From: Gemmatimonadota bacterium
GTDB lineage: Bacteria > Gemmatimonadota > Gemmatimonadetes > Palauibacterales > Palauibacteraceae
Direction of reading: 5' to 3'
Assembly: GCA_965116475.1 (NCBI GenBank)
Contig: OZ220691.1
Location: 1,824,001 to 1,888,000 of the forward strand
DNA: 64,000 nucleotides
The position numbers were made by a program, and so were the translations under genes. Within the stretch, counting starts at the first letter, position 1. Each line of letters starts with the position of its first letter. The notes under the pieces are model-generated. The model was not told the DNA's origin, did no database searches, and saw only the letters and a program-made list of their open reading frames with translations. Shown here piece after piece: positions 29,961 through 31,994 of this stretch.

Positions 29961-31994
29961 ATGAATGACACGGCAGAGAGCTTGAAGGCCGAATCCCTGA
30001 GCCTCGCCGATGAACTCATCCTCATGCTTCTCGACGAGAAGGGCGGTTACTTCCACCAGGTACCCGGCTGGCAGCTGAACTGCGCCGTTGTCGGCGGAGT
30101 GCTGGCGGAACTCTCCTTCCGGTCGCGGCTCGACTCGGACTTGACATCCCTGTACGTGGTGGACCGGACCGAAACGGGCGATCCCGTTCTGGACCCCATC
30201 CTGAAGGAGATCGCGGACGAACCGGAGCAACGCACGGCCCGGTACTGGGTCGAACGGCTCGCCCCGCGCGCGGAGTCGATCGTCGACCTGACTCTGGATC
30301 GCCTGGTTGAACAGGAGATCCTCCAGTTCCACGACGGGGAATTCTGGACGCTGGCTCCCCCGGTCATGCATCGGCAGCAGTACGGGATGTTCGAGGAAGG
30401 CGCGACCGACCAGTTCATCAAGGCGCGTATCAGTAACGTCATCTTCGCCGACGAGGTTCCCGAGCCGAGAGATGCCGTCATCGTGTGCCTCGTCAACACC
30501 TGCGACGTCTTTCGCCTGATTTTCGAACTCGATGAAGCGGCGGAGGAGCGCATCAAGTGGATCTGCCAGCTGGACCTGATCGGCCGGTCCATCGCCGCCG
30601 CGGTCTCCGAGAACCTCGTGGGCCCGATCCGTAGACATGCGCCTCTCGCCAAGAAAATCCCGACGGTTCCGCTGCGCGGGCTGCTGCGCAACCCGCATAT
30701 CCGGGACGGCAACCTGAACGCGCTCTTCGGGAGCCTCGCGGAGGAGTACGGCCCGGTGTTCCAGATCCGTCCTCCCTTTGCGGAGCGCATGATCTTCCTG
30801 GCCGGACTTGAGACGAATGAATGGATGCAGAAGCGCGGGCGCAGGTACCTGAGAACCAGGGACTACTTCGGCGATTTTGAGAAAGTCTACGGCGCGGCCG
30901 GCGTTCTCCCCGCCCTGGACGGGGCCGACCACTTCCGGCTCCGCAAGTACCTGTCGCCAGCCTATTCCCGCACGAGGCTCGCGGGGCAGCTGGACGAGCT
31001 CTACGACAGGGGTCGCGCGTACATGTCGACCCTGAAGGTCGGGGATGCCTACCGCGCCACGTCCATGGGCCGGGCCATGGTGAACGCCCAGCTATCGCCG
31101 CTGTTCATCGGTGTCGACACGCAGGATCTCATGGACGACCTGATGGTCTACAAGGAACGGGCCCTCAGCGTGCATATCGCCAGGATCCTGCCCCGGTTCA
31201 CGCTGCATACTCCGGGCATGAGACGTCGGGCGGCCGTCCTGGACACGCTGATGAAACGGATCCTGAGGGTCCATACTCCCGCCCAGCGGGTGGACAGCCC
31301 GCGGAACCTGGTGGACGACTATCTCAGCCTGCACGCCAGCGACCCGCAGTTTCTCCCGGAGTCCAACCTGCTCTTCGCTTTTTCGGCGGCCCTGATCGCC
31401 AGCGTGTACCTGGGCGATACGTTCAGCCTCGTGGTCTACGCCCTGGCGTCGCAGCCGGACCTCTACGACAGGATCCGCGCCGAAGCGGATGCCCTGTTCG
31501 CCGAGGGTGACCCCGGGGAGGAGGACTTCACCCCCGCCAACATCGATGTGACGCACCGCTTCCTCATGGAATGCATGCGCATGTACCCGATCGTGTCCAT
31601 GTCCGTCCGGAACGTGATGAATACGTGCACGGTCGGGAACTACGAGTTGCCCCTGGGGGAACGGATCCACATCGCCATGACCGCCACGCATTACATGAGC
31701 GACGTCTTTCCCGAACCCCACAAGTTCGACATCGACCGCTTCCTGCCGTCGCGTCGCGAGCATCACAACCTCGGATTCGCGCCGTACGGGCTGGGTACGC
31801 ACAAGTGTCTCGGCACCCGCTGGATGGAGATGCACCTGGCGGTCAACCTGCTGATGCTGGTGCACTATTTCACGATCGAGGTGACGCCGGCAAAGTACAA
31901 CCGGAAGCTCCGATTCAATCCGCTTCCGTCGCTGAAGCCGAGCAAGAAGATAAGGTTCCGCATCTCCGAGCAGAGGCGGGAGCTGCCCGCCTGA
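29961..31994 (+). CDS. GPP34/GOLPH3-domain - cytochrome P450 fusion
   Basis: N-terminal LSLADELILMLLD...GGVLAELSF..RL...TGDPVLD...YWV...LDRLVEQEIL (GPP34 pattern). C-terminal ExxR (MECMRMYP), FDIDRF and heme motif FAPYGLGTHKCLG. Single continuous ORF. Confidence 0.85.
   Translation: MNDTAESLKAESLSLADELILMLLDEKGGYFHQVPGWQLNCAVVGGVLAELSFRSRLDSDLTSLYVVDRTETGDPVLDPILKEIADEPEQRTARYWVERLAPRAESIVDLTLDRLVEQEILQFHDGEFWTLAPPVMHRQQYGMFEEGATDQFIKARISNVIFADEVPEPRDAVIVCLVNTCDVFRLIFELDEAAEERIKWICQLDLIGRSIAAAVSENLVGPIRRHAPLAKKIPTVPLRGLLRNPHIRDGNLNALFGSLAEEYGPVFQIRPPFAERMIFLAGLETNEWMQKRGRRYLRTRDYFGDFEKVYGAAGVLPALDGADHFRLRKYLSPAYSRTRLAGQLDELYDRGRAYMSTLKVGDAYRATSMGRAMVNAQLSPLFIGVDTQDLMDDLMVYKERALSVHIARILPRFTLHTPGMRRRAAVLDTLMKRILRVHTPAQRVDSPRNLVDDYLSLHASDPQFLPESNLLFAFSAALIASVYLGDTFSLVVYALASQPDLYDRIRAEADALFAEGDPGEEDFTPANIDVTHRFLMECMRMYPIVSMSVRNVMNTCTVGNYELPLGERIHIAMTATHYMSDVFPEPHKFDIDRFLPSRREHHNLGFAPYGLGTHKCLGTRWMEMHLAVNLLMLVHYFTIEVTPAKYNRKLRFNPLPSLKPSKKIRFRISEQRRELPA

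Follow-up and report, generated by a model that had tools for sequence, protein, structure and literature searches.

The protein analyzed here is encoded on the forward strand of a 64,000-nucleotide stretch of a Gemmatimonadota genome (assembly GCA_965116475.1, contig OZ220691.1, positions 1,824,001 to 1,888,000; hereafter the window), and it joins an N-terminal GPP34/GOLPH3-fold domain to a complete cytochrome P450. We propose, with a probability of roughly 0.6, that it is a sterol-tailoring P450 that carries the GPP34 domain as a membrane- or partner-docking module; substrate and activity are predicted. The fusion is the third gene of a same-strand operon that also encodes an RND membrane-fusion protein (MFP), an RND permease and a sterol-type C-methyltransferase (SMT). 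Moreover, the set composed of the GPP34-P450 protein, the methyltransferase, a KshA-like Rieske oxygenase, a lipid transporter of the RND superfamily and often a LkcE-like flavoprotein travels together through at least nine phylum labels. The fusion itself is already known: Ferreira et al. (Microbiome 2025;13:4, PMC11706023) published the same architecture in 2025, under the name GPP34_L, from sponge symbionts. What the genomic context adds is a different, testable function: it contradicts the effector hypothesis published for this family, and it connects a protein that ranks among the strongest genomic hallmarks of sponge symbionts with sterol-type enzymes and lipid transporters instead of host phosphoinositides.

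According to the text of that paper, 656 of the 663 long GPP34 proteins combine GPP34 and P450, and Gemmatimonadota are among the carrying phyla (92.6% of 54 symbiont genomes). As the fused proteins make up 656 of the 1381 GPP34 proteins of sponge symbionts reported there, the view that bacterial GPP34 proteins are usually stand-alone, from which the first-pass annotation had started, fails in this habitat. What the window protein has in common with GPP34_L is the presence of GPP34 and PF00067 in one polypeptide and the origin from a sponge symbiont. The authors found GPP34_L only in sponge symbionts; since two of the 80 loci considered below (L009 and L032) have coral-type names in their record titles, "exclusive to sponges" may be slightly too narrow, judged by record title alone. 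In the literature library searched, Ferreira et al. was the only relevant paper on GPP34 and sponges, and no paper joining GPP34, sterol and symbiont was found. The words "sterol", "methyltransferase" and "RND" have no occurrence in the main text of PMC11706023.

The open reading frame (ORF) is uninterrupted over 29937/29961..31994 (+), and neither a stop nor a frameshift nor a break in composition marks the domain junction. An alternative in-frame TTG at 29937 would add eight residues; the alignments of orthologues begin at residues 1-4 of the ATG form. Pfam recognizes GPP34 (PF05719) over almost the whole profile (E 1.9e-29; positions 1-199 of 201), with 103.6 bits where the cut-off is 29.1, and p450 (PF00067) at residues 396-663 (E 1.1e-33, 117 bits). 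The P450 is considered full length because in a phmmer search of the PDB residues 236-651 align with essentially whole CYP51 chains (7jj1, 6mi0 and 6mcw; E 3e-19); CYP120 is also matched (2ve3; 5e-18). Between the two domains there is a basic linker whose length is constant and whose mean identity is 55% (gapless in the sampled rows of a 75-sequence alignment), and the GPP34 domain is placed directly N-terminal of the proline-containing P450 start KKIPTVPL. Pfam, phmmer and the fold match described below thus agree with the first reading of the gene, about 220 GPP34 residues followed in the same frame by a complete P450. Neither domain is degraded, and both are strongly constrained, GPP34 nearly as much as the catalytic one: among 75 orthologues the mean identity to the window protein is 68% for the GPP34 domain and 74% for the P450, with 36 of 202 and 110 of 442 columns invariant, respectively. 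The window protein is a two-domain member of GPP34_L, probably cytoplasmic, from a sponge-associated Gemmatimonadota bacterium.

These orthologues come from a scan of species-representative genomes, which gave 560 stretches confirmed by tblastn, of which the best 80 (63-93% identity) were kept; 74 of them yield stop-free full-length translations, and the window protein is the 75th sequence. PF05719 and PF00067 are both present in all 120 of the homologues listed in a search with the window protein (67-98% identity, 664-686 aa). In a library of representatives at 50% identity, 363 proteins are found at E<1e-30, dozens of which have 650-690 aa and align over residues ~13-672 at 26-55% identity; one divergent fused cluster, among ten divergent fused forms examined, is labelled Acidimicrobiaceae. 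The chance that the fusion is an artefact of assembly or gene calling, by which two neighbouring genes were joined, is practically nil. The assemblies behind the orthologues are independent, and many are chromosomes in a single contig; the linker shows conservation and does not vary in length. Contigs of three separate sequencing runs cross the domain junction, so that the read-mapping check proposed in the first-pass annotation for about position 30620 comes out in favour of the fusion. For example, record 3 of run X1 spans 30476-30731 with no differences, and record 28 of run X4 spans 30531-30729. Four runs cover every one of the 30 bins, and among these four is a sponge-metagenome RNA library (X3); contigs of this library cover both domains, and none of its listed pieces spans the junction. 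The annotation's worry about an isolated fusion with no homologues can thus be put aside. Apparently shorter homologues of residues 1-230 were considered as true stand-alone GPP34 proteins and rejected, being mostly fragments of fused genes (52-88% identity, several annotated as partial). In a locus labelled Dehalococcoidia (L083:10001-10720), the part coding for the N-terminal domain contains one stop codon and may be a pseudogene or reflect a sequencing error.

The distribution of the fusion is linked to habitat and is patchy. The record titles of the nearest relatives read Candidatus Palauibacter and include names derived from sponges and corals, and the sponge-metagenome-labelled runs X3-X6, which belong to three studies, hold 32-52% of the window's words; X3 and X4 yield pieces near-identical to the window. 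The 74 orthologues bear labels of nine phyla: Chloroflexota (33), Gemmatimonadota (18), Latescibacterota (8), Pseudomonadota (2), Verrucomicrobiota (2) and four others with one each, seven being unlabelled. In a quick maximum-likelihood gene tree the sequences are largely clustered by label: 12 changes of label are needed, where the minimum is 8 and the mean of shuffled labels 30.6. Starred branches force at least three changes for Gemmatimonadota and at least four for Latescibacterota, and the window protein groups with four Candidatus Palauibacter rows (99*). Among 151 sampled Gemmatimonadota genomes the fusion is present in 10, confined to two families. The label changes on the tree, the 63-70% identity across phyla and this patchy distribution indicate horizontal spread of the fusion gene, for which neither donor nor direction is claimed.

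The fold of the N-terminal domain is that of GOLPH3. An AlphaFold2 model built from 24 sequences (pLDDT 66, pTM 0.68) matches GOLPH3 (3kn1_A) with Z 16.7, root-mean-square deviation 2.8 A and 188 aligned residues, and Vps74 (2zih_A) with Z 16.2; among 48,161 chains the next match after these two has Z 4.9, and the eight top matches of Foldseek are all GOLPH3/Vps74 (E 1.2e-8, TM-score 0.66). The structural comparison proposed in the first-pass annotation thus places GOLPH3 and Vps74 at the top. Profile and fold searches were needed for this assignment, as a single-sequence phmmer search of the PDB gives only E 0.04 to GOLPH3. The window domain shares with GOLPH3/Vps74 (3kn1, 2zih, 9qpq) the fold, a protruding beta-hairpin and the acidic character, whereas it is only ~20% identical to them, lacks their flexible N-terminal COPI-binding region, does not conserve the arginines of the pocket for phosphatidylinositol 4-phosphate (PI4P) and is fused to an enzyme in bacteria that have no Golgi.

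In human GOLPH3 the PI4P pocket is composed of W81, R90, R171 and R174, as given in passages of PMC2806290. In alignments by sequence and by profile the counterpart of R90 is V44, a pairing that is firmly anchored by the following invariant glycine and the LxELxxRxR helix; the residues found here are V, I, T or A, and none of the 75 orthologues has a basic one. W81 pairs with V34, an invariant tryptophan (W37) being found three residues further, and the counterpart of R174 is either an insertion or I/V108. The whole-domain net charge is -22, with a pI of 4.35 (median charge -20, range -28 to -6 over the orthologues), and that of the P450 part is +10 (median +8). Because the pocket is not conserved and the domain is so acidic, docking to PI4P in the manner of GOLPH3 seems unlikely from sequence. 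A different use of the same fold is consistent with the hairpin, in which L121, H124, G126 and T130 are invariant and F128 and W129 near-invariant in the orthologues. According to passages of PMC12494035, GOLPH3 inserts its hairpin into the lipid bilayer and, with an electronegative face, binds membrane proteins by their short basic tails. Of the three known functions of GOLPH3, the PI4P site is argued against in the window domain, and hairpin insertion and binding of basic partners would be compatible with its sequence. An iron-sulfur cluster or another cofactor in this domain was considered and discarded, as it contains no invariant cysteine in a wider family alignment of 39 sequences.

The fusion protein has no hydrophobic N-terminus and no transmembrane segment, and the GPP34 domain lies topologically where a microsomal P450 carries its N-terminal anchor. 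The earlier suggestion that the domain replaces the transmembrane anchor of eukaryotic P450s therefore stands as to position, which fits topologically and with a constant 19-residue linker; as to function, docking to a membrane or to a partner is only plausible, given the conserved aromatic hairpin and the presumably acidic surface. The companion suggestion that the domain docks the enzyme to the adjacent RND pump fares worse. In 28 of 65 loci the neighbouring transporter is of the unrelated MMPL/HAE3 type and the GPP34 domain is still 56-100% identical; since the transporter type switches between phyla while the GPP34 domain stays, a specific fit to an AcrB-type pump is unlikely. Candidate docking targets are the face of the membrane, the P450 itself or another protein shared by the cassette.

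Heme-thiolate P450s are recognized by the FxxGxxxCxG, ExxR and PERF-type arginine signatures. Those of the window protein, namely E537/R540, R593 and the heme ligand Cys616, are invariant in all 75 orthologues, and the cysteine also in the 39-sequence alignment. The I-helix is, in contrast, non-canonical: A480, S481, Y483, L484, G485 and D486 (ASxYLGD) are invariant in the orthologues, and the next position (487) is occupied by A (37), T (27), M (9) or G (2). As a consequence the usual acid-alcohol pair, (A/G)Gx(D/E)T(T/S), is absent, which suggests an unusual oxygen chemistry or substrate-assisted catalysis. This pair is typical of P450s, not obligatory, and the P450s that lack it include substrate-assisted hydroxylases and peroxide-rearranging enzymes. 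Most rows of the wider GPP34-P450 alignment keep AGxDT or a close variant.

Some genomes hold both types: G058, G124 and G132, all Gemmatimonadota, have a second GPP34-P450 paralogue, 30-32% identical to that of the window, which is presumably of the canonical I-helix type of the wider family.

Identification of the P450 part as CYP51 was also considered and rejected. CYP51 of the Methylococcus capsulatus type is the best solved sequence relative and shares with it the E-class, eukaryote-like character and the sterol context; however, the similarity is low (best E only 3e-19), the I-helix reads ASVYLGD here and AGHHTS in the CYP51 chain, and the B'-region motif is unmatched. CYP51 has its signatures in the I-helix and the B' region.

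The neighbouring genes suggest a link between the fusion and lipids. Only 10, 30 and 11 nt separate the successive genes of the operon, and these intervals contain no terminator-like site; a scan of 23500-37000 was uninformative, returning no sigma-70-like sites and terminator-like sites at chance level, and an Rfam scan of the 64-kb window found no RNA family. As the first-pass annotation had stated, an RND gene adjoins the fusion. The membrane-fusion protein is recognized by TIGR01730 with 159.5 bits (cut-off 94.9). The methyltransferase contains Sterol_MT_C (56 bits against a cut-off of 21.7), a class I methyltransferase domain and a YGWGESLHF region. The best solved relatives of the Rieske protein are 3-ketosteroid 9alpha-hydroxylases (KshA, 4qdc, E 1.4e-22); it was rejected as a C-4 methyl oxidase of the SdmA type (NCBIfam NF052579), scoring 36.5 bits where the cut-off is 600.

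An OEP-family outer-membrane efflux protein is encoded at 16850-18232 (-) of the window, ~7 kb upstream of the MFP-RND pair and outside the operon; it could be a candidate third component of the pump.

Neighbours were counted in those 65 of the 80 loci whose flanks extend for 8 kb or more to either side of the fusion. A Rieske gene is found in the flanks of 61 of these loci, the SMT of this type (SMT_A) in 53 and both in 51. Some transporter of the RND superfamily is present in 55, of the AcrB type in 28 (within 10 kb, 70-94% identity) and of the MMPL/HAE3 type likewise in 28; the MFP gene lies upstream of the fusion in 20. A LkcE-like flavin amine-oxidase accompanies 33 loci, and only one locus has none of these neighbours. 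Gene order and orientation vary between lineages, which points to selection on co-occurrence rather than to one inherited block. The best solved relative of the flavoprotein is LkcE, a polyketide-tailoring amine oxidase, and the genome of the window carries the flavoprotein away from the cassette (81% identity). In locus L049 the MMPL transporter matches the Sterol-sensing, Patched SSD, HAE3 and HpnN models and weakly BstA. HpnN, for hopanoids, and BstA, for sterols, are likewise RND-superfamily transporters genetically tied to triterpenoid enzymes; in contrast to them, the L049 transporter scores far below the equivalog cut-offs, and the pump of the window is of the AcrB type with an adaptor protein.

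The context is sterol-related, as seen from the SMT, the KshA-like Rieske protein and the sterol genes beside the cassette in L046. In this locus, labelled Opitutales, the fusion is immediately preceded by a 3beta-HSD-like gene, an SMT, a fused squalene epoxidase and cyclase (SE-OSC), a 490-aa P450 and ERG24. The SE-OSC protein (L046:2645-6526, -) has 1294 aa and joins squalene epoxidase (FAD_binding_3 and SE) to a complete cyclase with both SQHop domains; the 490-aa P450 is CYP51-like and separate from the GPP34-P450. In L041, labelled Nitrospirales, homologues of ERG24 and HSD are within the locus, and a cyclase match is found a few kb beyond, in a similar long frame of 1269 aa. Passages of Kelly et al. 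2022 (PMC9531527) describe a trio of ERG24, P450 and cyclase in sponge symbionts, and it is this trio that adjoins the cassette in L046; in passages of Brown et al. 2023 (PMC10070321), SMTs of sponge symbionts methylate sterols in vitro. The sterol clusters of these two papers have in common with our cassette the sterol-type methyltransferases in sponge symbionts of many phyla and the horizontal spread, whereas the genome of the window has the tailoring genes and no cyclase. The passages of both papers make no mention of a GPP34 or Rieske gene; a P450 is not mentioned in those of PMC10070321 and only once, in the reference list, in those of PMC9531527.

The genome of the window is closed in one 3.62-Mb contig (completeness 96.3%). 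Within it SQHop_cyclase_N (PF13249) and squalene epoxidase (PF08491) have no match, SQHop_cyclase_C (PF13243) reaches only 34-36 bits over ~95 residues of a 426-aa ORF, and tblastn with the SE-OSC of L046 gives nothing at 1e-5. There is no CYP51, the three other P450s being ordinary bacterial AGxETT types. The same genome contains, ~5 kb apart, an ERG4/ERG24-family reductase and a second, more canonical SMT, that is, a second sterol locus in a cyclase-free genome. The cyclase N-domain match is also absent in nine of the ten fusion-bearing Gemmatimonadota of the 151-genome sample, and a cyclase match in three of five other cassette genomes. Since squalene epoxidase, cyclase and CYP51 are all missing from the closed genome, the enzyme most likely acts on a sterol that comes from the sponge host. 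Two SMTs, a gene of the sterol-reductase family, a steroid-type Rieske protein and this P450, all without a cyclase, suggest that the bacteria re-tailor host sterols. This matters for the question of which organisms produce the unusual sponge sterols and for the interpretation of sterane biomarkers.

The mechanism that we propose is as follows. The P450 would oxidise or otherwise transform a sterol-like lipid, here a sterol from the sponge host; the neighbouring SMT would methylate and the Rieske protein oxygenate the same lipid, which the transporter would move. The GPP34 domain would not bind PI4P; standing in place of the N-terminal anchor of eukaryotic microsomal P450s, it would tether a P450 that by itself is soluble to the inner side of the cytoplasmic membrane, or to a basic partner located at that place, with the conserved aromatic beta-hairpin and the presumed, strongly acidic surface as probable contacts. 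This would give bacterial GPP34 domains their first concrete role. A bolder and still speculative extension, which we regard as doubtful, is that GPP34 is a portable bacterial module for docking to the membrane face, which in sponge symbionts brings sterol oxygenases (P450, sometimes Rieske) and ABC ATPases to a lipid transporter, and that the cassette takes host sterols, re-tailors them by methylation, Rieske chemistry and an unusual reaction of a P450 without the acid-alcohol pair, and exports the products. If this were true, cyclase-free symbionts would contribute to the unusual sterols of sponges and the published effector model would be overturned, with a bearing on sponge sterane biomarkers.

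Several observations weigh against the sterol-tailoring reading or against parts of it. The model of the N-terminal domain is of middling confidence, the residue mapping is a sequence alignment and not a superposition, and the equivalent of R171 is ambiguous, as HMMER gives the conserved R114 and an ungapped reading E105. The net charge of -22 disfavours electrostatic binding to anionic bacterial membranes, and for this reason membrane tethering would rest on the hairpin. The cassette contains no ferredoxin or reductase gene. The neighbouring SMT is divergent (56 bits for Sterol_MT_C, 40-44% identity to the second SMT type), and its C-24 specificity is putative. De novo sterol genes lie within 10 kb in only two of the 80 loci, and the absence of a cyclase fits a non-sterol substrate equally well. 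Lastly, the phylum labels are the submitters' titles of metagenome bins, which are not fully reliable, and a library such as X3 can hold DNA.

A cassette acting on a non-sterol lipid, such as another terpenoid, a carotenoid-derived lipid or a polyketide, for which the "sterol" names would be mere homology labels, is an unlikely reading, though one with several facts on its side. These are the absence of cyclase, epoxidase and CYP51 in the window genome, the missing cyclases of most related cassette genomes, the divergence of SMT_A, the score of the Rieske protein far under the SdmA cut-off and the likeness of the flavoprotein to LkcE. They are opposed by the Sterol_MT_C domain and YGWGESLHF region of the SMT, the KshA likeness of the Rieske protein, the sterol-sensing domain match of the MMPL partner and the neighbours of the cassette in L046, as well as by the second SMT and ERG4/ERG24-family reductase retained in the window genome and the in vitro activity of sponge-symbiont SMTs. 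Less probable again is that the acidic GPP34 domain works within the molecule, as a regulator or docking mimic on the basic P450, for example on its proximal face, the binding site of acidic ferredoxins, or on its substrate entrance, gating electron transfer or substrate entry. The opposite charges of the two parts and the constant length of the linker agree with this, and so does the text of PMC11706023, where stand-alone GPP34 genes of Actinobacteriota are often found within five genes of a P450 (8 of 13 and 17 of 19 genomes). However, the same text reports that GPP34 is, more rarely, fused with a Rieske domain, in 2 genomes, or with an ABC ATPase, in 5; a general localisation module fits these better than a regulator specific for P450.

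The published explanation is of a different kind. Ferreira et al. propose, in the text of PMC11706023, that sponge symbionts secrete their GPP34 proteins, the long form among them, as effectors which bind host PI4P and stop the maturation of the phagosome; the context of the window, in contrast, points to a cytoplasmic lipid-tailoring enzyme. The restriction of GPP34_L to sponge symbionts in that paper speaks for an effector, as do the GOLPH3 fold confirmed here and the patchy, habitat-linked distribution with its sponge-metagenome-labelled holders, and signals for type III, IV or VI secretion may escape inspection of a sequence. On the other hand, the position of R90 is never basic and R174 has no basic counterpart, the domain is strongly acidic and the N-terminus is not of the Sec or Tat kind. 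Moreover, the GPP34 domain is covalently joined to a heme enzyme that needs a cytoplasmic reductant; its gene shares the operon with genes for an RND pump and a methyltransferase, and in 61 of the 65 loci it is linked to a steroid-type Rieske gene. For the window protein we consider the effector role very unlikely.

Table 1. Coordinates of the fusion gene, its parts and the associated genes (window numbering, except for the last two rows, which give positions in the genome of the window)
Feature	Position	Strand	Details
RND membrane-fusion (periplasmic adaptor) protein, operon gene 1	25499..26725	+	Pfam HlyD_3/HlyD_D23; NCBIfam RND_mfp TIGR01730
AcrB-type RND permease	26736..29930	+	1064 aa; Pfam ACR_tran E 6e-158; stop 30 nt before fusion ATG
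GPP34-P450 fusion gene	29961..31994	+	677 aa from ATG; GPP34_L family member
GPP34/GOLPH3-fold domain	30003..30608	+	residues 15-216; Pfam, fold match, charge
Predicted beta-hairpin	30321..30353	+	residues 121-131; DSSP strands 121-124 and 128-131 in the model
Basic linker	30609..30665	+	residues 217-235 (19 residues); ends in KKIPTVPL
P450 domain	30666..31991	+	residues 236-677; phmmer alignment to CYP51 chains, Pfam p450
I-helix motif A480-S-V-Y-L-G-D486	31398..31418	+	non-canonical, replacing (A/G)Gx(D/E)T
Heme-ligand Cys616 codon	31806..31808	+	YGLGTHKCLG; invariant 75/75 and in 39-sequence family alignment
Sterol-type C-methyltransferase (SMT_A)	32006..33037	+	343 aa; Sterol_MT_C and Methyltransf_11; ATG 11 nt after fusion stop
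KshA-like Rieske oxygenase	33061..34095	-	344 aa; Pfam Rieske and KshA_C; convergent with operon
ERG4/ERG24-family reductase	2160826-2162205 (L092:7826-9202)	-	125 bits
Second SMT, more canonical	2166628-2167740 (L092:13628-14737)	-	Sterol_MT_C 75 bits

The window also contains other genes. Directly after the Rieske gene there is a GH116/DUF608-like glycoside hydrolase (34300-36750, +); only the closest relatives (L008-L010, L017, L018, L031) retain this gene next to the cassette, to which it therefore probably does not belong. It is followed at 36805-41342 (-) by a LysX-type ATP-grasp protein, a semialdehyde dehydrogenase, an amino-acid kinase and a class-III aminotransferase in a row, which looks like a carrier-protein (LysW-type) pathway of lysine/arginine biosynthesis, and at 41559-42263 (-) by a bacterial TMEM164-family protein, which matches the full profile of PF14808 with E 4e-51. 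At the other end of the window, a NotI-like restriction endonuclease (PF12183, E 3e-42) and a C-5 cytosine DNA methylase form a type II restriction-modification pair (10066-12379, -), and an AAA ATPase of 382 aa overlaps the start of a 777-aa subtilase (3944-7418, +) in what looks like a two-gene defence or protease module. An AbiEii nucleotidyltransferase toxin (105-1570, +; E 5e-28) overlaps with an ORF of 221 aa in front of it, which has no Pfam match and may be its antitoxin; an AbiEii-like gene is also found near the cassette in L022.

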